A DNA stretch of 35,061 bases, from NCBI GenBank assembly GCA_964564405.1, contig CAZMCW010000004.1, positions 1 through 35,061 of the forward strand, written 5' to 3'. Under the pieces are notes generated by a model. The model saw nothing but the letters and a program-made list of their open reading frames with translations. It made no database searches and was not told where the DNA came from. Position 1 is the stretch's first letter. Every line of letters starts with the position of its first letter. The DNA comes from an uncultured bacterium. Its GTDB lineage: Bacteria; Deinococcota; Deinococci; Deinococcales; Trueperaceae. The position numbers and the translations under genes are program-made. Of this stretch, positions 1 through 33,578 are shown piece by piece.

Positions 1-60
1 GCGACCTAGGGGAGTAGAAATCGACCCACTCAGTGTGGGGGAACCAATTCTGGAACTGCT
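1..60 (+). repeat. Copy 1 of the ~100-nt dispersed structured repeat family, 5'-truncated by the window edge
   Basis: GCGACCTAGGGGAGTAGAAATCGACCCACTCAGTGTGGGGGAACCAATTCTGGAACTGCTA aligns almost base-for-base with the copies at 12994-13090(-), 19462-19558(+), 23108-23204(+), 31424-31523(+) and 33479-33578(-). Confidence 0.9.
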
Positions 61-115
61 ATGTACTAGCTCAGCTGCGCTTGGCATGCTGGTGTTAATT
101 GCTGCTACTAGCATC

Positions 116-4034: not shown

Positions 4035-4083
4035 CTAGCAAAGCGATATTACTTCCTGTAGCAGTTACGCGTGGAAACGCTAT
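4035..4083 (-). repeat. Solo or decayed fragment (5' end) of the dispersed repeat family
   Basis: Plus strand cctgtagcagttacgcgtggaaacgcta matches copy 6 (cctgtagcagttactcgtggaaacgcta) at 27 of 28 positions. Similarity decays beyond that, and the second hairpin is missing. Confidence 0.7.
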
Positions 4084-4202: not shown

Positions 4203-5462
4203 CTAACGGCGTACCAGATCAATGCTAAGTTCAGTCGTTCGCCCACCACGAATAATAAAGTCGGTGAGGAAGGTATTGTACCCGTCTGCAACGACGGTTA
4301 ACTGGTGGGTACCAGACGGTAAATCGTCAACACTACCGCGCCCGGTTTGCAAGTTACCATACGACGTACCGTTGATAAATACCCGCGCGCCACGCACGTT
4401 GGTGTCGATGACCAAGTCACCTTGTAAGCTAGCTAAGCTGGTGTTGACAGTTTGAGCGCGCCCACCTACTACAGAAAAACTTACATCTGTTTCTTGGAAA
4501 CCAGCCAGACGGTACTGCGCTTGATAGTTGCCTTCATCTAGCGCCACGTCACCAGTAGGCGTAACGCCAATTCGTTGACCGTCTACAAAGACCTCAGCAC
4601 CACTTGGTGAGCTTGTAAAACTAACTGTACCCGTACGGCGAATGGCATTGAGTCCGGTAGAAATGGTGACCGTACCCCCACCAGCTAAATCTACAACGCG
4701 GCGAAAGGACTCAAATCCACTTGCTTCAATGACAACTTCGCGGGTGCCCGCGCGCGCGCCGTAGCTTACAGGTGTGGTACCTACAAAACGCCCATCTACA
4801 AAGACATCTGCACCTTGCGGGCTCGAGTCAACCCGAATCGTCCCAAAAGTTGGCGTTGCCGGAATGCTACCTACATAAAACAGCGCTGTATCTGTGACCC
4901 AGTTTTCAGGTGCAATAGGTTCAATAACAATAGACAACTGGCGGGTAAAGTCGTCACCAGAATAAGTTCTCGAGGCAAAGTTAGGATCAGCTTCAAAACT
5001 TACGAGTTCGCGAGTGCTGAGTGGATTGCGGCTAGCAACTGCAATCACTTTATCTAGACCCAATGGGCGGTCAACCGTAAAACGGTAGTTAGCGTTGCTC
5101 GGCGGGAAAGTTTTGGTTTCACCAGCACGTAAAAAGTTGCTGCGTCCAAAATCATCAAGTTCATTGGGCAAAATTTGAGTCACTTCGCCGTTACTGCGCA
5201 CGTTAAATAAGTAAACATAACTATCTTGTGTCACGCTGACACTGATCGTAATGGCTTCACCAGGTTGGTAACTAGGTGTTGCTTGACCTGAAGGGTCTTT
5301 GTTAACTGAGACATCAACCTCAAAACTGGGGGCGGGGTTAACAATAATGGACCGGGGGCTAACCACAATGCTACGACTTTGTGCCAACGCACTCGAAAAG
5401 ACACTTGCAACGAGTGTGAGTAGCACAAGCATGGCGAGCCGTTTTGTAAAGATGGTATTCAC
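4203..5462 (-). CDS. Secreted PEGA-domain protein (N-terminal DUF4384-like region plus 3 PEGA repeats)
   Basis: 419-aa ORF with a signal peptide (LLTLVASVFSSALA). PEGA-like repeats: ADVFVDGRFVGTTP, AEVFVDGQRIGVTP, ARVFINGTSYGN. Confidence 0.8.
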   Translation of the reverse strand: MNTIFTKRLAMLVLLTLVASVFSSALAQSRSIVVSPRSIIVNPAPSFEVDVSVNKDPSGQATPSYQPGEAITISVSVTQDSYVYLFNVRSNGEVTQILPNELDDFGRSNFLRAGETKTFPPSNANYRFTVDRPLGLDKVIAVASRNPLSTRELVSFEADPNFASRTYSGDDFTRQLSIVIEPIAPENWVTDTALFYVGSIPATPTFGTIRVDSSPQGADVFVDGRFVGTTPVSYGARAGTREVVIEASGFESFRRVVDLAGGGTVTISTGLNAIRRTGTVSFTSSPSGAEVFVDGQRIGVTPTGDVALDEGNYQAQYRLAGFQETDVSFSVVGGRAQTVNTSLASLQGDLVIDTNVRGARVFINGTSYGNLQTGRGSVDDLPSGTHQLTVVADGYNTFLTDFIIRGGRTTELSIDLVRR

Positions 5463-6979: not shown

Positions 6980-7410
6980 GCCGGTGTTTCGGTACTTTCC
7001 AAAACAACCTCAAAACTAATGTCCGACTTGAGGCTCGAGGCTACCGAGCAGTACTTCGTCATACCTAGTTCGACAAAACGCTCAGCTGTTTTTTGGTCTA
7101 GACCAGGTACATTAAAAATGTGCTTAGCATGAATGTGGGTATAGTAACGAGGAATGGTATCTGCCCGCTCACCAGTTAGTTCAATACGATACGCATGAAG
7201 CTCGAGGCGGCGTTTTTTCACCATTTCAGCAATGTCAAACGCAGCACAACCGCCTACCGCGTTGAGCAGTAAGTCCATTGGACTCATGCCTGTTTTGGCC
7301 GTACTTGCGCCATCGATCATGACGCGCTGCTGGTCGGGGGTAATGCCGACGTAGCGTTTCTCGGCAATTTGCGTGACGGTTGTTTGTTTAGGGAGTGTTG
7401 TATCAGCCAT
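6976..7410 (-). CDS. OsmC/Ohr family peroxiredoxin-like protein
   Basis: 144 aa. LLNAVGGCAAFD and KYCSVASSL contain the two conserved Cys contexts typical of the OsmC family. Confidence 0.8.
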   Translation of the reverse strand: MADTTLPKQTTVTQIAEKRYVGITPDQQRVMIDGASTAKTGMSPMDLLLNAVGGCAAFDIAEMVKKRRLELHAYRIELTGERADTIPRYYTHIHAKHIFNVPGLDQKTAERFVELGMTKYCSVASSLKSDISFEVVLESTETPA

Positions 7411-7442: not shown

Positions 7443-8051
7443 ATGTCAACAGGGAAACAGCCCGATGCAGATGTTATCAGGCAAAAGCATATTCAGGTCA
7501 CTAAACGCGCGTGGCGGCGTTGGGCAAAACAAACACGTCAGAAGTTACCTTTGGTAGAGCGCAGTGCTGCTGTATGTGACATGCTAGTGGGCTCGATCCT
7601 TATTCACGAGGCAACGCACATTCTAGCGTATTTGCCCACAACTCTCGAACTAGATATCACACCTTTACTTAGAGGCTTGCAACAACAAAGCAAGTATATT
7701 TACGTGACGCGAACCTGGACTGAGCACCGTCAACTCAGTGTGCATGAATTAGATATGACTAGGCTCGAGTGGCATCCCTTTGGCTACCTACAACCGCCAG
7801 TGAGTGCAGCCGTTGTTGACCCTAGAACTATCGACCTCATGTTATTACCAGGACTATGCTTTGACGTGTTAGGTGGGCGCTTAGGTTACGGTATGGGTCA
7901 CATCGATAGACTCCTAGCAACTAACCTACCCGCGTGCAAAGTTGGCGTGGTCGCGCGTGAGTTAGTTGTCCAGCGGCTTCCCCAAGAAACAACGGACGTC
8001 CGTATGGACGCCCTAGTAACAGACCAAAAGATAGTTATAACTAAAAATTAA
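7443..8051 (+). CDS. 5-formyltetrahydrofolate cyclo-ligase
   Basis: 202 aa. LLPGLCFDVLGGRLGYGMGHIDRLL matches the C-terminal G-x-G-x-G-x-x-D-R signature of the MTHFS family. Confidence 0.75.
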   Translation: MSTGKQPDADVIRQKHIQVTKRAWRRWAKQTRQKLPLVERSAAVCDMLVGSILIHEATHILAYLPTTLELDITPLLRGLQQQSKYIYVTRTWTEHRQLSVHELDMTRLEWHPFGYLQPPVSAAVVDPRTIDLMLLPGLCFDVLGGRLGYGMGHIDRLLATNLPACKVGVVARELVVQRLPQETTDVRMDALVTDQKIVITKN

Positions 8052-8991: not shown

Positions 8992-10656
8992 CTAGGTTGT
9001 GGCAGGTTGTGCGTTAACGCTACGCTGGATAATATACTGCTGTCCAACTTGTACCAGCATCGAAGTAACTAGATAAAGGGCAACGCCAGACGGAAAGTTG
9101 ATAATGAAAAACACAAAGATCATGTTGATCATAAGTTGTTGGCGTAAGGTATCTTTGTTGCCTTTAGCACTCAGCAAAGATTGACCCACCATAACACCCA
9201 CATAGATAATGGGCAAAATGAAAAACGGGTCCGCTTGACCAAGGTCAGGAATCCACAAAAATCCTTGGTTAAACTCAAAGTTCATAAACACCCGCCACAA
9301 AATAATAAACAGTGGCATCTGTAGTACCATGGGCAAGCACCCTCCCATTGGGTTGACGCCTGCTTCCTGGTAGAGTTTCATGGTTTCTTGAGTAAGCTTT
9401 TCGCGGTTATTTTTGTATTTCTTTTGTAGTTCCTGAATCTTTGGCTGAATTTTTTGCATTCCCACCATGGATTTAGTTTGAGTTGCCATAAGCGGCCAAA
9501 TAATCAGTCGGAAAAAGAGGGTTAGTAATATAATGGACAAACCCCAACTACCAATTACATTTTGCAGTTGCTCGAGGATAAAAATAATCCCCAGTGACAA
9601 CTGTCCCAAAATATTGGGTGTAAATAAGCCAGGCAAATCTTTATAATCTTCTTGATGGTAACGCACAAGCTCGTTGGGACCCGTGTAGACTTCCAAGTTG
9701 AGCTCGCTTGTACCCTCATTTAAAGCTGCACCCAAGCTGACGATATCAGGCGGTAAGTAGGTGGCCATGTAACCATTTGCAGCTTGCTCTGGACGCAAGA
9801 TAATAGCTTGCCCAGTATTGCGATTGTTGCTTTGCAACGACGCATAGAGGGGATCGTCGATCGGTTGAGAAATAGGGTTAAGTGCAAAAGTTGTACCTTG
9901 ACCCACTTTGACGATAGGTTCTTCTTGTCTAGCAATGCCAGGAAACGCGTAGCGAATCATGTCTATATCACTTACGGTTAACGCGTCAGTATCTTCGTCA
10001 TTTTCTGCACTGGTATCTTCTGAAGGACTCTCCTCAGCGGGAGTATCTTGTGCTTCAGAAGATGTTATAAGAGCAGCATCATTTAAAGGGCTAACCTCGA
10101 TAGACACATCAAACGTGTTGCTAACGCCACTAACCAAAATAGACTTGGTAACCGCAAAAGGACCAACTGCAAGTTCAAACTCACCTAACAAATCAGTACT
10201 ACTAATTTGATCCCAGCTCGAGGCAAGCACCTCGGGCTTAACGTAAGTATCTCCTAAGAGGAGTGCGCCCCCAGGAATACTGGAACCAGCAGGAATTAAG
10301 TTTTGAGCCGCAGTCAGGTTGTAATTATTTAAGTTTTGCCCGCGCTGCTGCTTAACGTAAATGGCTGCCAACTCGCCAGCGTCGGTAATAAACAGATCCA
10401 TACTCTTGGTGGTGATAAGCGTGAGGTCATCTTGCCTACGCGCACACCAAAACGAGCTATCGGTAATACACAATTCGGACAGACTATCGCTAGCGTTGCG
10501 AAAATCTTCTACTGCAAACTCGTTAGCTGCAAAGGTAACTCTGGCAAGCGCCACAGTACCAAGCGCCAACAAGCTTAGCGCAATTGCGCTAGCTAATAAA
10601 CGTGTAACACAAGGTTTCAACATTCCTCCGAAAGTGTAACAAGTAGTTAAAAACAT
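8992..10656 (-). CDS. yidC: Membrane protein insertase YidC (long form with a large periplasmic domain)
   Basis: 554-aa ORF with the conserved C-terminal core (KMQ..QPKIQELQKKYK, GVNPMGGCLPMVLQMPLFIILWRV). The start is uncertain: ATG at 10656, or ATG at 10623, which is preceded by GGAGG but with only a 1-nt spacer. Confidence 0.9.
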   Translation of the reverse strand: MFLTTCYTFGGMLKPCVTRLLASAIALSLLALGTVALARVTFAANEFAVEDFRNASDSLSELCITDSSFWCARRQDDLTLITTKSMDLFITDAGELAAIYVKQQRGQNLNNYNLTAAQNLIPAGSSIPGGALLLGDTYVKPEVLASSWDQISSTDLLGEFELAVGPFAVTKSILVSGVSNTFDVSIEVSPLNDAALITSSEAQDTPAEESPSEDTSAENDEDTDALTVSDIDMIRYAFPGIARQEEPIVKVGQGTTFALNPISQPIDDPLYASLQSNNRNTGQAIILRPEQAANGYMATYLPPDIVSLGAALNEGTSELNLEVYTGPNELVRYHQEDYKDLPGLFTPNILGQLSLGIIFILEQLQNVIGSWGLSIILLTLFFRLIIWPLMATQTKSMVGMQKIQPKIQELQKKYKNNREKLTQETMKLYQEAGVNPMGGCLPMVLQMPLFIILWRVFMNFEFNQGFLWIPDLGQADPFFILPIIYVGVMVGQSLLSAKGNKDTLRQQLMINMIFVFFIINFPSGVALYLVTSMLVQVGQQYIIQRSVNAQPATT

Positions 10657-12773: not shown

Positions 12774-12993
12774 AACTCATAGTTTACCTGTAGTTGCCGC
12801 TTGATGTTGAGGGTTGCTCACATCATCAGCATATTGGGGTAGGAGTTTGATGTACATGAGAAGGTTACAAACAAGCAAATTTGGGTAGTTATTAATGTGT
12901 GTGTATTGATAACACAACTTCATCTACTAAAGATCTAACCAACTAACGTTACAGATGACATCGTTTTGTTGAAGCGGATAATTGCTACGGTTT

Positions 12994-13090
12994 GTAGTTC
13001 TAGGATTGGTTCCCCATACTCAGTGGGTCGATTTCTACTCCCCTAGGTCGCGTGCGCAACTGCCTGTGGCAGCTACTTGTGGAAACGCTA
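12994..13090 (-). repeat. Copy 2 of the dispersed repeat family
   Basis: The reverse complement is TAGCGTTTCCACAAGTAGCTGCCACAGGCAGTTGCGCACGCGACCTAGGGGAGTAGAAATCGACCCACTGAGTATGGGGAACCAATCCTAGAACTAC. Confidence 0.92.
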
Positions 13091-13188: not shown

Positions 13189-14205
13189 TTAGTTGCGCAA
13201 CTCCCAAGTAAATCCTAAGACAGATTGGCGCAGGTGAAAGCCTCGAGCCTCGAGCACCTTACACGCAGCCCGTTCGTCGTCATGAGCGCGGGCAATTACC
13301 ACCTCAACGTTGTCGTTCTCAAAAGCAAGGTCAATGCCGGCTTGTACTAAGCGTTTGCCAATACTGTGCCCACGTGCGCCAGGTAGCACGCCAAAGTAGG
13401 CAATTTCCGCTTCGTGAGTTACCACTTGGGTAGCATCTGAGTCTGCTACATCCGAGTCCGCTATAAGCGCTTCAACAGGGATAAGTTCTAACTCTAAATG
13501 CCCTACCAGCTTATCTTGCTGACACGCTACCAAAAGTTGAATATCGTCTTGTGCAAAGTGGTTGATGAGGTCGTCATCTGACCAGGTAAGGCGGTCGTGC
13601 CAGTCTTCGGTTGTGTCGCGGTAGAGGTCGCGGTAGAGCGCAACGTCTAGGCGGGACGGATGGTTGTCATCCGGACTGGTTGTAAGGCTACGGATAAGCC
13701 GCAGCTCGGTCTCAAGATGCTTAGCTAACCGCGCCTCGTCTGCGTTTTGTGTACCTCGCTCGAGCTCGTAGAGGTAGGTGGTCCGAAACGCTTGCATACT
13801 GGCTTGACGCAATACATTTTGGGCGTGGCGGTTTTCTTCATCTACAAACGCGTCAATAAATTCATAGTGGCGTTGCGGTGCAAACTTCAAAACGCGTTTG
13901 ACGAGCTTGGCAACAGCCTCAGTTGGCGCGTCCGCCGTCATGACTGGACCCTCCATAACATGCTCGCCGTCTTCGCTCCTTAAATTGACATAGGCAATGA
14001 CTTGCTCGTCTTGCTCGAGCACAAAGGCAAGCGATTCGTGCTCAGGGCTGTCGTCGCCAAGTTCAAGTGCAAGTTCATCTACGGTGCGGCTGTCTGGCGC
14101 AAAGGTACGCAAGCTAGCATCAGCGTCAGCAGCTTCTAGTAGCGAAATGAGGGCAGGGTAGTCTCGAGCGTCTAAGGGGCGTATCATGCTGCCCCTACTA
14201 TACAC
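13189..14205 (-). CDS. Tandem-GNAT N-acetyltransferase (MshD-like two-domain architecture)
   Basis: 338 aa. The C-terminal half carries the acetyl-CoA motif (GVLPGARGHSIGKRLV) and the N-terminal half is a degenerate GNAT. The start may be the internal Met at 14187. Confidence 0.7.
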   Translation of the reverse strand: MYSRGSMIRPLDARDYPALISLLEAADADASLRTFAPDSRTVDELALELGDDSPEHESLAFVLEQDEQVIAYVNLRSEDGEHVMEGPVMTADAPTEAVAKLVKRVLKFAPQRHYEFIDAFVDEENRHAQNVLRQASMQAFRTTYLYELERGTQNADEARLAKHLETELRLIRSLTTSPDDNHPSRLDVALYRDLYRDTTEDWHDRLTWSDDDLINHFAQDDIQLLVACQQDKLVGHLELELIPVEALIADSDVADSDATQVVTHEAEIAYFGVLPGARGHSIGKRLVQAGIDLAFENDNVEVVIARAHDDERAACKVLEARGFHLRQSVLGFTWELRN

Positions 14206-17171: not shown

Positions 17172-18905
17172 TCAAGGATTGAGTCGCAAAGGCTCACCAT
17201 AGCTGAAGCCATTGAGCGTGAGTGACACCGTAATGGGTCCAGCAATATCTGTCGTCCACTCTCCTTCAACCACGTCACCACCTTCAACCATGGCCCGGCT
17301 GAGCAAGATACTTTCGCCGTCTAAGCTGCTAGCCCGTACCTCGGCAATTTGAGCAGAAATGCCTTGCTCAACGTTCCAGCGGTAGCTAAACGTGCGCGGC
17401 TCGAGTGGGTTGATGCTAACGGCAACCTGCGGCACAGGAATAACTTCAGGTTGGGCGTTGATGGTAAGTTCCACGGTGCTGTTGGTGCTGTTGCTGTTGG
17501 GTTCAGGCGTTTGAAAGATAATCCCAGCAGGTAAGTTGGCGCGGCTCACGTAGCTAAATACCGGGTTGAGCCCCTGAGCGCGGGCTAACGTAATAGCCTC
17601 AGCTTCACTCATGCCAATAAAGTTGGCAAAGCCATCTTCGGCAATAACCTCACTTGCAGATGAAGCTACCAGCAACCGCACAGTTGCATCTGTTTTGAAC
17701 GGAACAAACGGTTTGTGATTTTGCTCGAGCACCGTGCCAACTTCAACACTAGCTTGCTGGCGGTCAATGACCAAGGGTGTTTCAATACCGGCAGCTAACA
17801 CAATGGCTCTTGCCGCGTCTTCAGATAGACCCCGCAAATCTGGAAGTACTGTCAATGCAGATGCTGGTCCAAGGCTGACAAGTACGTCTACGGTACTACC
17901 TTGGGGCAAGGTGGTTTGGCTCGAGCTAGCTTGGGCAATAATAGTGTCGGGCTGAATATCAGCATGGGTTTCTAGAAGACGGCCCAGTTCAAGCCCTTGT
18001 TGTTGCAAAGTTGTGCGTGCTTCATCTAGGCTTAAACCACGCAGTTCAGGTACCGTCTGGGGTGATAACTGCGCTGCTGGCAGGGCGTAGCGCAAGGTGA
18101 TTTCGCGTCCGGCCCGAAGTTGATTGCCAGCTATTGGGCGCGCTTCAATGACCTGCCCAGCAGGTTCGGTAGAGGGGACAGCCTCGAGCACAGTCTGCAA
18201 GCCTAGACTGTAAAGCTGGTCAGCAGCAGTATTAATTTGCTGACCGCGCAGTTCAGGAATAACTACCCAAGGTGCTTGCGTGCGTACAGCGGTAAGCAGT
18301 AATAGCACACCCAAACCACTTAGGGCAAAAGCAATGAGCCAGTCGAAGTTAGGGGTAATGTATTGCCAGCCCCGTTGCCACCAAGGTAAACGCCGTACAT
18401 GTCCTGTTTCTGCAGCACTACCAGCTTGCCAGCCTAAACCGTAGAGCATAAGGTCACCTGTGCGTTTGTCACGTCTTAACAGGGCGTCTGCTAGGTTGCG
18501 TTGATGTGCTGCCAACATGTCTTTGAGCGCTTCGTAACGTGCGCTTGTTAATTTGTCTCCCCCGGCTACAGGCTGGCTTGTTGTGTTGTCTGGTCGAGCC
18601 CACACAACATAGTGCGCGCCAGGCCGCGACACAACATCGTGCACAGCAGCAAGGCGCTTGCGCTTAAGCCCTTTAAGCAAGATGCGATAACGCTCAAACG
18701 CATCTTCTTGAGCAAGTGGCAACCGGTACCAGGTGATAGTCACCCACGTACCGTCAGATGTTTTGGCATCTAGTAACGTGCGCTGGCCGTCATAGACGTG
18801 TTCAGCGTAAACACGGTACTTACCGTCGATGAGACGGCTAGTTGCTTTGGCATCATCTTCAGGTGATGTTACTGGTGTAAGGGTAGGTGATGATTTAGAA
18901 ATCAC
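17172..18905 (-). CDS. Single-pass membrane protein with 4 extracytoplasmic PASTA repeats and a short degenerate kinase-like cytoplasmic head
   Basis: 577 aa with a TM helix (LIAFALSGLGVLLLLTAV). Four repeats of the PASTA pattern (PELRG..ea...L...GL). The N-terminal ~170 aa lack a Gly-loop and a VAIK Lys, and have HQRN and LYG where HRD and DFG would be. Confidence 0.75.
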   Translation of the reverse strand: MISKSSPTLTPVTSPEDDAKATSRLIDGKYRVYAEHVYDGQRTLLDAKTSDGTWVTITWYRLPLAQEDAFERYRILLKGLKRKRLAAVHDVVSRPGAHYVVWARPDNTTSQPVAGGDKLTSARYEALKDMLAAHQRNLADALLRRDKRTGDLMLYGLGWQAGSAAETGHVRRLPWWQRGWQYITPNFDWLIAFALSGLGVLLLLTAVRTQAPWVVIPELRGQQINTAADQLYSLGLQTVLEAVPSTEPAGQVIEARPIAGNQLRAGREITLRYALPAAQLSPQTVPELRGLSLDEARTTLQQQGLELGRLLETHADIQPDTIIAQASSSQTTLPQGSTVDVLVSLGPASALTVLPDLRGLSEDAARAIVLAAGIETPLVIDRQQASVEVGTVLEQNHKPFVPFKTDATVRLLVASSASEVIAEDGFANFIGMSEAEAITLARAQGLNPVFSYVSRANLPAGIIFQTPEPNSNSTNSTVELTINAQPEVIPVPQVAVSINPLEPRTFSYRWNVEQGISAQIAEVRASSLDGESILLSRAMVEGGDVVEGEWTTDIAGPITVSLTLNGFSYGEPLRLNP

Positions 18906-19461
18906 AAATCAAAGTTCCTCGAGGTTCACTGCTACAAAATTCTGATATAGCGTTAGCCGTAAGTATGGAGCTAGCTCCATGCTTACCGAACTAAGCGAGT
19001 ACCAATAGACCCGCTCCGTTTACAGACCAATGTTTATGCATATCGCTATATATGCAAATAAATTGAGTGTCTCAACAAACAAGATGCTATCTCTGAGATT
19101 ATCCGAAACAATCAAGAAGCGTGAATTCTGGGTATTTCAAGTGTCCCATTTGAGAACGTCTTTGGATTTTTAATGTTGGATGCTGATAGAAACGCATCAA
19201 TTTGGATGTGTTATACCAAGTCCAAAAAACACATCATCAATCCTTGTGGGATTTCCATCTGTCTGGCACGGACTTGATATCTGTTTCTACTCATGTCGCT
19301 CGGGTTGCTTTGTTACCAAAATAACCGAAAATAGTATTAGACAGTCTTTCTGAAAGACCATAGCAGACTCGCTTCAGTATTATGCGCTAATTATAGAGCA
19401 TGAGTATGAGACAGCTACCGTCACAGCCTGCAGATTGGGAGATGATGAAGTCTGATATAGA

Positions 19462-19558
19462 TAGCGTTTCCACGAGTAACCGCCACAAGCAGTTGCGCGT
19501 GCAATTCAGGGGAGTAGAAATCGACTTACTTAGTATGGGGGAACTAATCCCAAAACCA
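19462..19558 (+). repeat. Copy 3 of the dispersed repeat family (most decayed full-length copy)
   Basis: TAGCGTTTCCACGAGTAACCGCCACAAGCAGTTGCGCGTGCAATTCAGGGGAGTAGAAATCGACTTACTTAGTATGGGGGAACTAATCCCAAAACCAAT. Confidence 0.85.
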
Positions 19559-19579
19559 ATAAGATAATTTGAGATTGGT

Positions 19580-19622
19580 GACGCAAAACAAACATAAAAA
19601 ACGCGGGGGTTAGCCGCGTTTT
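19580..19622 (-). terminator. Rho-independent terminator of ftsH
   Basis: Minus strand: AAAACGCGG-ctaaccc-CCGCGTTTT followed by ttatgtttgtttt. It starts 14 nt after the ftsH stop. Confidence 0.8.
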
Positions 19623-19635
19623 AGATGCACTAAAA

Positions 19636-21630
19636 TTAACTGCTTGAGCCCGAAGGTTCTGGACGTGGGTCAATAGGCGGACTACTATAGCGCTCAGCTT
19701 CACGGCGCTTGGTTTCTTCGGCTGCGGCTGCACGCCTCGAGGCTTCCTCGAGCAGTCGTTCAGCTTCACCCATTTCACGGTTGATCATGTCGGCAATTTC
19801 TTCAGCACTAGCACCTTCTTGAGTGCGGTTAAACGCATTGCGAATAGCTTTCCCATCGAGGGTTTCGCGTTGCAAGAGCGCTAGCGAAATCCCTTCAACA
19901 GCAACCCAATGGCGGTCAATAAGTGCTTCGGTTTCTTGATAAGCTTCTTGCAAAATACGAGTCACTTCTTCTTCCAACTCGCGGGCAGTTTCTTCACTAA
20001 AGTCTTTGCGGCGGCTAATTTCGCCCCCTAAAAAGACCGGACCATCGTCTGACCCCCACGCAACGTACTCCTCGCCGCCCATGCCAAAATCTAGCACCAT
20101 GCGCTTGGCAAGTCCGGTGGCTTGTTTAAGGTCATTAGCAGCACCCGAAGAGATGGTGTCGGTAAGGCGTTTTTCGGCGACGCGCCCACCAAAAGCAACA
20201 ATGATTTGCTGCCTAAAGCGTTCTAGGTTGGAAAACATTTCTTCTTTTGAAAGTGGTGCCATATGCCCGCCAGCGCCGCCGCGCGGCATGATGGTCACCT
20301 TGCGGATTTCACCGAGGTTGGCATGAGCAGCAAACGCAACCGCGTGCCCCGCTTCGTGATACGCCAAAATTTTGCGTTCTTCTTCGCTCGGTACCAAACT
20401 GCCGCGCCTAAGCCCCAACACAATGCGGTCAAGGGCTTCGTTAAAGTCTTGTTTAGAGATGATGTTTTTGCTGGTGCGCGCTGCAACTAGAGCAGCTTCA
20501 TTGGTAAGGTTTTCAAGGTCGGCACCTGAAAACATTGGGGTAGCGCTAGCTAGTTCTTCTATGTCAATGTCATCAGCAATGGGTTTGTTTCGTACATGCA
20601 CGCGCAAGATTTGTTCGCGCTCACGGTGGGTTGGTAGCCCAATAGTGACTTGACGGTCAAAGCGACCAGGACGTAAGAGTGCTGGGTCAAGAATATCGGG
20701 TCGGTTGGTTGCGGCAATAATAATCACCGAGGTGTCTTTTTCAAAACCGTCCATCTCGGACAAAATTTGGTTGAGGGTTTGCTCGCGCTCATCGTGCCCA
20801 CCGCCAATACCTGCTCCACGCCGCCTGCCGATGGAGTCAAGCTCATCAATAAAAATAATCGCTGGCGACGACTTGCGGGCTTCTTCGAAAAGGTTGCGCA
20901 CGCGGCTAGCACCCACACCTACAAACATCTCCATAAATTCAGACGCGCTAACCGTTAAAAAGGGCACACCAGCCTCACCAGCTACAGCTCTGGCTAGCAA
21001 AGTTTTACCCGTTCCGGGCGGCCCTACCAATAACATGCCTTTAGGGATTTCGGCACCAATACGGAGGTATTTTTGAGGGTTTTTGAGAAAATCCACAACC
21101 TCTTTAAGTTCTTGCTTGGCTTCTTCGTGACCGGCAACGTCTTCAAAGGTGGTACCCACTTTGTTTTCTTTACCGTAGGTTTTGGCGCGTGATTGACCAA
21201 ATTGCATGACTTGGCTCGAGCCACCTTGGGCGCGCATGAAAATAAACCAGAAAAAGCCAATTAGAATCACAATAGGCAAAATAGAAAAGATAATCCCTAA
21301 CCACGGTGAAGGGTTTTGACCGATAACCTCAACGTTGTTTTCACGTAACAGCGAAATGAGGTCAGGATCGTCAACAGGTACGGTGCGGAAATTGCGAATA
21401 GCCCGAATCTGGCCGTCAATTTCTACCTGTGTTTCATTAAACAGTTCACCCTGAATGCTGCTACCGTCTTCAATGATAACGGCGCGTACGCGTCCTTCAC
21501 GAACCAGTTCTTCCGTGAAGGTAGAGTAGGGAATTTCCCGACTGGGTGTGTTGGAATTAAATTGATTAAACATAAAAATGCCCAAAATGATGAGCATAAC
21601 TAGTATCCAGGGATTAAATGATCGTTTCAC
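19636..21630 (-). CDS. ftsH: ATP-dependent zinc metalloprotease FtsH
   Basis: 664 aa with Walker A (GPPGTGKT), Walker B (IIFIDELD), the SRH region, and the HEAGH zinc motif. Confidence 0.95.
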
Positions 21631-22956: not shown

Positions 22957-23107
22957 AAAATTCCTTTCTGAATGTTGATCTTGGTTTGTGATAGCTGCTG
23001 ATGGCGGGTAAATAAATATCATTAGCGTGACAGAACTTAGCTTGAGGTTGCTATTAAATGAAAGTATCTGGCTTAAAGGCTATTTCTTGATATATGTTAA
23101 TTTCTGA

Positions 23108-23204
23108 AGCCTTTCCACGAGTAGCTGCCACAGGCAGTTGCGCGTGCGACCTAGGGGAGTAGAAAGCGACCCACTTAGTGCGGGGAACTTATCCTGGAAC
23201 TACT
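23108..23204 (+). repeat. Copy 4 of the dispersed repeat family, inside the thi-salvage operon and antisense to it
   Basis: AGCCTTTCCACGAGTAGCTGCCACAGGCAGTTGCGCGTGCGACCTAGGGGAGTAGAAAGCGACCCACTTAGTGCGGGGAACTTATCCTGGAACTACTA. Confidence 0.92.
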
Positions 23205-23274
23205 ACTGACGAGATAGATAGTGATAGTGTTGTAACTCACATGCTCGAGCATCCTAAACGTTGCTTGGATAAGG

Positions 23275-25696: not shown

Positions 25697-25757
25697 ATCG
25701 GAGCTATTGAGTGAATGCGGTTTTGGGCAGATAGTAGAACTGCTTAGTGTTAAACCG

Positions 25758-25848
25758 GCTGTCACGCTCCCTACGCTGGTGCTAACCAGGTCAGGTTCCT
25801 AGGGTTGGGCGGTCGCCCTCTCAGCTTATCTGCACCCCTGATGACGTT
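25758..25848 (-). promoter_or_regulatory. TPP (THI-box) riboswitch
   Basis: Minus strand: GTCATCAGGGGTGCAGATAAGCTGAGAGGGCGACCGCCCAACCCTAGGAACCTGACCTGGTTAGCACCAGCGTAGGGAGCGTGAC. It contains the canonical GGGGTGC, CTGAGA, ACCC, GAACCTGA-CTGG and CCAGCGTAGGGA blocks, and a P1 stem GTCAT/GTGAC. Confidence 0.9.
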
Positions 25849-25885
25849 ATATTTTAAGTTTATGCTTTTGTCAACACAATGTCAG
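25846..25885 (-). promoter_or_regulatory. Two overlapping sigma70-like promoter candidates upstream of the riboswitch
   Basis: (a) TTGACA (25869-25874), 17 nt, TATAAC (25846-25851). The -10 abuts the P1 strand, so the transcription start would cut into P1. (b) CTGACA (25880-25885), 17 nt, TAAACT (25857-25862). This one leaves P1 intact. Confidence 0.4.
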
Positions 25886-26175
25886 CACACGTGCCTACAA
25901 ATGGTGGGATTGCGCGATGCTGTTGTAGATGCTTGAGGTTTAATATTGCCTTTTAGAAAGGGTGAAGGGGTGAAAGGAGATGGGGAGATGTTATCAGACG
26001 GCGCACTACTGCTTCATGCAGGATGACTCTTGTGAGGCTCAGGTGGTTCAACATCTAAATTTATAGAATGTAATGGCATCATTTAACAATCTCAAAGGTA
26101 AGCATAGCAATAGCATCCAAAACTAGGCTGATGTTTCCAGTTTATGCCTGCTTGACATCTAAAGATGACAACGTC

Positions 26176-26676: not shown

Positions 26677-27633
26677 CTACAAGTTTGCCTCGCTGAGGAA
26701 CCTCGAGAGACGCAGGCTGCGGGTAGCTTGTCCGGCACTGTTACTTTGAGCGTTATTACTTTGCGTACCCACAGGCTCGAGTATGACCTCAACTTGCTCC
26801 AGTGAGCGCGGCGTTGGTGTGCGGATTTGGTAGCTACCTGAACGCTGTGCTGCATCACCTTGCCCTAAATCTTCTTGCAGTGCCAAAAAGATGTGTGAAC
26901 TGCGGGTGGATATGCCGATGTTGGGAAAGCGTCCGTCAGCAAAACTGTAAACACCTGTGACCTGCCCGGTTGCCAAATCACCCTCGCTAAACAATGCCAC
27001 ATTGACCTGTCCGTTGAGGTAGTCGTCGTAAAGCTCGAGCACCGCACCTAAACTAGTGGCACCGTTGCAGCCAGGGTCGTTGACATCTAACTTGAGCGCG
27101 TACCCAAACGACAGTTGGACGCTTGCATCTGTATTAAAACGCTGGCTGCAGGCACTATTGTCATCGTTATCGAGAATGTCAAACGTAGCGCTGGCCCGCC
27201 ACGCAGGAAAGTCCATCTGTACATAACGCGCGCTCATCAGCTCATCCGCTTCAATACTAAAGCTGATTTGACCCGCTTGCACGCTGGTACGCGCAACAAC
27301 CTCAGGCGTACGAACCAGCCCACTCACCTGCGGGTTACCATCAAAAAAGGTGAGCTGAACCTCGCCGGAGAATCCTTCGCTGGAGAGTCTTGGTGATGTT
27401 ACCTCAGACGCTGTACTAGCTGTTGTGCCAGATGCTGTGTCAGATGCCGTATCAGTGGATGGCGCACAAGCAGCAAGGGTAGAAGCGATCAACACAATGC
27501 TAATGAACTGCAACTTGTCCCATAACTTTGAATCAAGCAGTTTTGAGTCAAGCAACTTTGAGTCAGGCAACTTTGAGTCAAGCAACTTTGAGTGATGGAG
27601 CGTATGCTGCAAATATTTGCGAATAATGGTCAT
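26677..27633 (-). CDS. Hypothetical lipoprotein with a repetitive (SKLLD)n pre-signal N-terminus
   Basis: 318 aa with a lipobox (STLAAC) after a hydrophobic stretch. The start is ambiguous: ATG at 27633 has no SD, and several in-frame TTG codons lie inside the repeat. Confidence 0.65.
   Translation of the reverse strand: MTIIRKYLQHTLHHSKLLDSKLPDSKLLDSKLLDSKLWDKLQFISIVLIASTLAACAPSTDTASDTASGTTASTASEVTSPRLSSEGFSGEVQLTFFDGNPQVSGLVRTPEVVARTSVQAGQISFSIEADELMSARYVQMDFPAWRASATFDILDNDDNSACSQRFNTDASVQLSFGYALKLDVNDPGCNGATSLGAVLELYDDYLNGQVNVALFSEGDLATGQVTGVYSFADGRFPNIGISTRSSHIFLALQEDLGQGDAAQRSGSYQIRTPTPRSLEQVEVILEPVGTQSNNAQSNSAGQATRSLRLSRFLSEANL
27524..27598. repeat. 15-bp tandem repeat (~4.7 units) carrying a near-palindromic TTGAsTCAA core
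   Basis: aactttgaatcaagc / agttttgagtcaagc / aactttgagtcaggc / aactttgagtcaagc / aactttgagtgatgg. Confidence 0.9.
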
Positions 27634-31423: not shown

Positions 31424-31523
31424 TAGCGTTTCCAGGAGTAACTGCCACAGGCAGTTACTCGTGCGACCTAGGGGAGTAGACATCGACCCACTCAGTGTGG
31501 GGGAACCAATCCTGGAACTACTA
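31424..31523 (+). repeat. Copy 5 of the dispersed repeat family (perfect 11-bp inner helix in hairpin A)
   Basis: TAGCGTTTCCAGGAGTAACTGCCACAGGCAGTTACTCGTGCGACCTAGGGGAGTAGACATCGACCCACTCAGTGTGGGGGAACCAATCCTGGAACTACTA. Confidence 0.93.
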
Positions 31524-33478: not shown

Positions 33479-33578
33479 TAGCGTTTCCAAGATTGGTTCC
33501 CCCACACTAAGTGGGTCGATGTCTACTCCCCTAGGTCGCACGCGCAACTACCTGTAGCAGTTACTCGTGGAAACGCTA
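33479..33578 (-). repeat. Copy 6 of the dispersed repeat family (perfect 11-bp terminal inverted repeat)
   Basis: The reverse complement is TAGCGTTTCCACGAGTAACTGCTACAGGTAGTTGCGCGTGCGACCTAGGGGAGTAGACATCGACCCACTTAGTGTGGGGGAACCAATCTTGGAAACGCTA. Confidence 0.93.

Follow-up and report, generated by a model that had tools for sequence, protein, structure and literature searches.

The locus considered here raises a simple question, namely what the sequence of 97-100 nt is that recurs between the genes of the window (the whole stretch of 35,061 nt that was analysed), and by which means it came to lie there. The gene content of the window is of the ordinary housekeeping kind and includes the genes for tRNA-Arg and a parvulin-type isomerase, jag, yidC, rnpA, uppS, a gene for a PASTA-domain protein, ftsH, murE, a Rid-family gene, a PP2C phosphatase gene, phoU and a transporter operon led by a TPP riboswitch. 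As judged from the encoded proteins, the host (G+C about 48%) is an uncultured Trueperaceae-like Deinococcota bacterium, since its FtsH has 77% identity with the Truepera radiovictrix protein and the nearest proteins are encoded by metagenome-assembled genomes (MAGs) of Deinococcota and Trueperaceae. Other repetitive stretches of the window are tandem 15-nt repeats in two ORFs (2661-2738 and 27524-27598, in a parvulin-like protein and a 318-aa protein whose family is unassigned), which probably encode repetitive peptide stretches; one JGI contig stops at 27563, within the second array. A 36-nt stretch (89% identity) also occurs in two intergenic regions of this lineage that are otherwise unrelated (window 25964-25998 and L010 1522-1557).

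The recurring sequence, referred to as family A, is represented in the window by five full-length copies, by a further one that is cut at the edge and by a truncated one (Table 1). Self-comparison retrieved all copies that an earlier note on this DNA had listed, with identities of 82-95%, and every one of them falls between ORFs, as the note had stated; several of its boundaries, in contrast, had to be shifted once they were placed where the similarity between copies ends in an alignment including the flanks, and a fragment given as 4035-4083 (-) was thereby reduced to a homologous part at 4051-4082 (-). The similarity runs from the T of TAGCG to the A of a terminal CTA, beyond which the copies have unrelated bases. 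The window has six matches to a 23-nt core pattern, AGGGGAGTAGAMAKCGACYYACT, while 0.00 were expected from 100 shuffles. Together with the complete versions of c1 and c7 in L009, with c8 in L010 and with J1 in the MAG JBCCBI01, the five intact window copies make up a set of nine full copies, whose pairwise identity is 76-95% (mean 85%) and which have no ORF in common. Copies occur in both orientations, follow no orientation rule with respect to the neighbouring genes, and reach a density of about one per 6 kb, the figure already put forward in the earlier note, with about eight full copies in 49 kb of the window lineage.

The window starts inside c1, while a second assembly of the same genome (L009, 99.9% identical) reads through this point and contains c1 as a complete copy of 100 nt at 833-932. 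The same arrangement of copies is found in separate assemblies from other samples (L002, L006, L008 and L009, 99.9-100% identical), so that family A is not an assembly artefact. Over 1762 nt, the window differs from L008 solely by 1 nt in the length of a G run of c3 (window 19532-19536), and the column concerned also varies among the family A copies. Next to c8 in L010 lies a degenerate partial copy (10211-10266, +), arranged tail-to-tail with the full copy, which suggests an insertion beside, or into, the end of an older copy.

Table 1. Positions, strands and flanking trinucleotides of the copies of family A and of its sister family B.
Feature	Locus	Position	Strand	Flanks (before/after)	Flank repeat	Remarks
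Family A, c1	window	1..61	+	ATA/TGT	none	3' 61 nt, cut by window start; nhmmer match to model positions 40-100; flanks from full copy in L009
Family A, c7	window	4051..4082	-	ATA/GTC	none	truncated; 5' 32 nt of element; flanks from full copy in L009
Family A, c2	window	12992..13090	-	ACC/ACC	perfect	between uppS and acetyltransferase gene
Family A, c3	window	19462..19561	+	AGA/AGA	perfect	most diverged copy; downstream of ftsH terminator
Family A, c4	window	23107..23205	+	CTG/CTG	perfect	in ABC transporter operon led by a TPP riboswitch; antisense to the permease and binding-protein genes on either side
Family A, c5	window	31424..31523	+	TGG/TGA	2/3	copy named by the coordinates of the earlier note
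c5, inverted repeat arms	window	31424-31434 and 31513-31523
c5, hairpin A	window	31435-31461
c5, conserved core	window	31462-31486
c5, hairpin B	window	31487-31501
Family A, c6	window	33479..33578	-	CTT/CTT	perfect	divergent spacer between PP2C phosphatase gene and phoU
Family A, c8	L010	10277-10375	-	TTA/CTA	2/3	full copy outside window
Family A, J1	L001 (MAG JBCCBI01)	7714-7813		AAT/TAA	none at 3 nt; TAAT/TAAT at 4 nt	copy from core scan of one genome per species
Family B	window	18946..19048	+			TATAGCGTTAGCC...GCATATCGCTA, ~103 nt
Family B, second copy	L002	1032-1133				91% identical to window copy
Family B, third copy	L030 (MAG JBCCOX01)	7197-7299

The ends of family A, as defined by the loss of homology (TAGCG...CTA), form a terminal inverted repeat, which had been proposed from the outset together with two internal hairpins, A and B, all three being present as sequence features. 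The inverted repeats are imperfect and extend over 11-13 bp (TAGCGTTTCCA ... TGGAAnnGCTA), with columns 1-11 of the alignment pairing with columns 90-100 in 76.5% of cells over all copies; the best example is c6 (TAGCGTTTCCA / TGGAAACGCTA), perfect over 11 bp. Flush with these ends, four of the nine full copies are flanked by perfect 3-nt direct repeats, each of a different sequence, whereas none of the 72 non-cognate pairs of left and right flanks matches at 3 nt (binomial P of at least four in nine, about 7e-6), and shifting the boundaries within +/-3 nt never gives more than two matches. Direct repeats of this kind at ends defined by homology point to the insertion footprints of a transposase with a 3-bp target stagger. 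The duplication is absent from three of the nine full copies, namely c1, c7 and, unless its 4-bp repeat is accepted, J1. An inversion between c1 and c7 was considered as the cause of their missing duplications and rejected, because the exchange of flanks that it predicts is not seen.

Comparison with related genomes provides a second line of evidence. In L003, L004 and L005, whose FtsH is 89% identical at the amino acid level, the gene order is kept from the PP2C phosphatase to the PASTA protein, and 17 kb of this species contain no copy of family A or of its sister family B. Individual sites give the same picture: the matching site of c2 is without a copy in L030 (MAG JBCCOX01), that of c3 in the ftsH-PASTA kinase spacer of L003 and L004, that of c4 in L003, L032 and L033, where the spacers are short, that of c5 in L007 and L003, and that of c6 in L007, with the consequence that the MAG JBCCBI01, to which L007 and L032 belong, lacks copies at the c4, c5 and c6 sites. 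The DNA of JBCCBI01 shares 72-85% identity with the window (about 81-85% in most segments), and the overall range for L007, L032 and L030 is about 72-86%. This genome nevertheless carries a copy of its own, J1, at a different locus; J1 is 95% identical to c1, which is above the genome-wide identity, and it is the only family A copy in the 31 kb covered by three JBCCBI01 loci. In the alignments of empty sites (L003, L007 and L030) the coding flanks align while the intergenic spacers are too diverged between these species to be aligned, so that the insertion points are unreadable at the nucleotide level.

Within the species of the window one polymorphism was found, a deletion. Where the window keeps only the 32 nt of c7, the 99.9% identical L009 strain has a full 100-nt copy (4939-5038), and the difference corresponds to an 82-nt deletion in the window relative to L009 4925-5006, which took away 68 nt of the element (its 3' two-thirds) as well as 14 flanking nt and whose junction (window 4051-4053) shows a 3-nt microhomology. 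Near-identical strains from three samples share the same insertions, and current activity of family A is therefore not demonstrated. A larger difference involves a 2.7-kb segment of JBCCBI01 (L001 5094-7824), encoding two FMN-reductase-like proteins and others, which is missing from the window lineage (L010 1-110). The right edge of this segment in JBCCBI01 is the family A copy of that genome, and the junction in L010 keeps only TAGCGTT, offset by about 12 nt, possibly a remnant of the element end.

Taken together, non-coding length well below about 500 bp, terminal inverted repeats, target duplication and dispersed copies that differ between genomes are the features by which miniature inverted-repeat transposable elements (MITEs) are recognized, and family A probably is one, mobilized in trans by a transposase with a 3-bp target duplication. 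The suggestion of a non-autonomous mobile element was thus well founded, given the uniform size, the inverted repeats, the intergenic sites in both orientations, the target duplications and the absence of copies from the sites of relatives. According to this model, a transposase encoded elsewhere in the genome would bind both ends of the element, excise or copy it and insert it at a target site whose strands had been cut 3 bp apart, and after repair of this stagger the element would be bordered on either side by a direct repeat of 3 bp, which may have any sequence; the family would have spread in this manner through the intergenic DNA of one uncultured Trueperaceae-like Deinococcota lineage, and its copies would then have decayed by point mutation and deletion. 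Duplications of 2-4 bp are typical of IS3, IS30 and some subgroups of IS5 (ISL2/IS1031/IS427). The mobilizing enzyme would accordingly be expected among DDE transposases of these types rather than among those of IS630.

The enzyme itself was sought in several ways. The window contains no transposase gene, as had been noticed before, and none was found in 16 related loci, which likewise lack any full-length insertion sequence with family A ends. When metagenomes were scanned with the 5' end of family A for a parent insertion sequence, the 19 matches obtained were all confined to the search pattern, and are thus attributed to chance. An exact-core scan of one genome per species gave the single match in JBCCBI01, and the same scan gave no match among JGI metagenome contigs and none among viral contigs; BLAST of family A against plasmids and phages was also without a match. 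Literature searches on MITEs in Trueperaceae and on these accessions returned nothing, those combining Deinococcus and MITE returned nothing concerning a Deinococcota MITE, and the element end sequence appeared only in unrelated contexts.

The sister family B, with one copy in the window and two elsewhere (Table 1), bears on how the ends of these elements are built. A global alignment (z = 5.9) shows that families A and B share their termini (TAGCGTT...CGCTA), an ACCAAT box and a similar central core, and the 12-bp 5' hairpin of family B occupies the same position as the family A hairpin but has a different sequence. The copy of family B in JBCCOX01 lies between convergent genes; those genes overlap in the window genome, meaning that the site is empty there. 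No clear target duplication was found in family B (n=3). The same MAG carries a mosaic variant (L034, about 13753-13882), whose last 62 nt match family A positions 39-100 and whose 5' part, with different hairpins, is another 5' module than that of family A. The 7-nt termini TAGCGTT/AACGCTA, an unpaired core of ~32 nt, CGAnCTAnGnGAGTAnnAATnGACCCnCTCnG, and the ACCAAT box are common to A, B and this variant, and the elements are therefore modular, combining a common core with different 5' modules. Since A and B have the same termini and a conserved unpaired core with a swapped hairpin, and since no transposase was found, there is an outside chance of a new mechanism: it is unlikely, but conceivable, that an undescribed transposase reads a structured end made up of the TAGCG termini, the hairpin and the 3-bp duplication, or that the host has recruited the core as an RNA site or a site for binding proteins.

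Additional repeats accompany these families. A third one, family C, is partly palindromic, measures ~130 nt and occurs at window 19207-19336, L009 129-258 and L007 10348-10479 (79% and 69% identity), and from the coordinates the ftsH-PASTA kinase spacer (18906-19635) holds three elements, namely family B, the ~130-nt repeat and c3. One copy of family C lies in the 830-nt non-coding contig end of L009 (1-830), upstream of window position 1, where a short tandem repeat, GAAATGCGGTT(A/G)TGTT, is also present at about 705-740. A candidate for a further element in L010 (TAGCGTTATAG...AACGCTA, 89-353) was discarded, as its interior and far end are ordinary homologous sequence.

Two descriptions of the element ends compete with regard to the TA dinucleotides, which had been interpreted as a target-site duplication of the type made by IS630/mariner transposases, as in Correia- or Nezha-like elements. 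Under that interpretation family A would be a MITE mobilized by an IS630/Tc1-mariner enzyme that inserts at TA and duplicates it, in the manner of Correia, Nezha, RUP or ERIC elements. TA is indeed present at most ends, as had been reported, and in family B, if its ends are taken to be TAGCG...CGCTA, it flanks two of three copies on both sides. However, at both ends of family A the TA sits inside the flanking duplication and within the homology, as part of the inverted repeat; it thus belongs to the conserved element end and not to the target. The direct repeats lie outside the TA, are 3 nt long and vary in sequence, and when the ends are moved one dinucleotide inward the cognate 3-nt flanks never match better. 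With TA belonging to the inverted repeat and a target duplication of 3 bp, an IS630/mariner-type origin is unsupported, and we regard it as very unlikely.

Next in order comes the view that family A is a structured small RNA family, or a cis-acting RNA, terminator or insulator module kept for a function in the host. Single copies do fold on either strand into a terminal inverted repeat stem and the hairpins A (12 bp) and B (5 bp), with stability z-scores of about -2 to -3.3 for the best family A copies on both strands and -5.4 for family B. Over the nine full copies, 83.9% of cells pair in this structure, versus 32-44% after a displacement of the 3' partners by 1-3 columns; most changes in hairpin A leave its pairing intact or strengthen it, and the unpaired core is well conserved and common to families A and B. 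Conservation reaches 97% at the 5' end, 96% in the centre and 84% in the 3' inverted repeat; MITEs do not usually have a centre that surpasses the 3' inverted repeat in conservation, although with nine copies the difference is not significant. Against these observations, covariation does not exceed that of shuffled controls, the observed pairing being reached by 234 of 500 shuffles, and the covariation term of RNAalifold for family A is only -0.2 kcal/mol. Shared ancestry, and not demonstrable selection, accounts for the structure, since shuffles reach the same pairing and do no worse in covariation score.

This also applies to c5, in which two substitutions (GCGCG to ACTCG) had been read as a hint that the helix of hairpin A is under selection: the substitutions are real, but the hint finds no support, with covariation not above that of shuffles. 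ACTCG recurs in c8, and c7 mends the same mismatch through the other arm, so these changes read as subfamily structure with no statistical signal. As for a known RNA, Rfam gave no match to family A at the gathering score, nor, for copy c5, at E <= 10, and only noise (E 0.4-4) across 18900-19640, in agreement with the earlier statement that no named ncRNA family was recognized. The five copies scanned contain no promoter-like or terminator-like site. These results, together with the missing orientation rule and the lack of a RAYT gene in the window and the related loci, speak against the small RNA, terminator, insulator and RAYT options that had also been offered, and the target duplications and the copy-free matching sites of relatives indicate insertion; an RNA or cis-acting module is accordingly highly improbable. 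The hairpins are inherited parts of the element, for which a host function is putative at most. Copy c4, if co-transcribed within its operon, would be predicted to form a stable stem-loop in either orientation. The TPP riboswitch of this operon is located at window 25750-25849 (-, 62.7 bits), upstream of a TenA-like gene and the ABC transporter genes.

Finally, it is scarcely credible that family A is an element recognized through a hairpin in single-stranded DNA, whether a REP/REPIN with its RAYT or a palindrome-associated derivative of IS200/IS605, elements of the latter kind being common in Deinococcus, because neither REP/REPIN nor IS200/IS605 elements possess terminal inverted repeats or duplicate their target, and those of IS200/IS605 insert beside a fixed 4-5-nt target, whereas family A has inverted repeats, 3-nt duplications and variable left flanks, and no Y1/HUH transposase or RAYT gene was found in any locus examined, even though subterminal hairpins do lie close to both ends and are retained at the same place, with unrelated sequence, in families A and B.

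Family A, as a MITE, would thus add a new family to a well-known type of element, judging from Rfam, plasmids, phages and the literature, none of which holds this sequence, and it opens no new class of biology. Its interest lies rather in enlarging, by a dense and well-delimited MITE family and its sister family, the repertoire of a phylum whose short repeats are known mainly from D. radiodurans, and in indicating that such repeat expansions are lineage-specific within Trueperaceae-like bacteria. Repeats of this sort may break metagenome assemblies, as the start of the window inside a copy illustrates; they adjoin deletions, both the 82-nt one in c7 and the 2.7-kb one with a possible remnant of an element end at its junction; and they may matter for gene expression, one copy (c4) being placed inside a riboswitch-controlled operon. 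The 3-bp duplication, in turn, narrows the search for the mobilizing transposase.

When considered beside known systems, family A resembles, in its general build, Correia/NEMIS of Neisseria, RUP of Streptococcus pneumoniae, ERIC/IRU of enterobacteria and Nezha of cyanobacteria, which are MITEs that duplicate TA and are linked to IS630-type transposases. Like these, it is non-coding, of the ~100-150 bp size class, bounded by terminal inverted repeats and present in many intergenic copies of either orientation; they also fold into a long stem-loop when transcribed, often inside operons, and family A can be listed with them in this respect. In contrast, its target duplication is 3 bp long and variable, TA is part of its end, and it has no sequence similarity to any of them. 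The 3-bp duplication and short inverted repeats are instead shared with MITEs of the IS3, IS30 and IS5-subgroup (ISL2/IS1031/IS427) types. Yet IS3 ends are TG...CA and IS1031 duplicates TNA, unlike the TAGCG...CGCTA ends and the ACC, AGA, CTG and CTT duplications of family A, and, going by general features of these families, the TAGCG ends would match no typical termini of IS3, IS30 or the IS5 subgroups. Within the same phylum, a parallel is offered by the small noncoding repeats (SNRs) of Deinococcus radiodurans, which comprise 295 copies of at least nine types with a mosaic structure and are absent from D. geothermalis (PMC1978522). Both cases represent a lineage-specific expansion of short intergenic repeats of modular build from which near relatives are free, and family A, set beside the SNRs by their description, differs in that its host is a Trueperaceae-like bacterium of ~48% G+C and not a Deinococcus.
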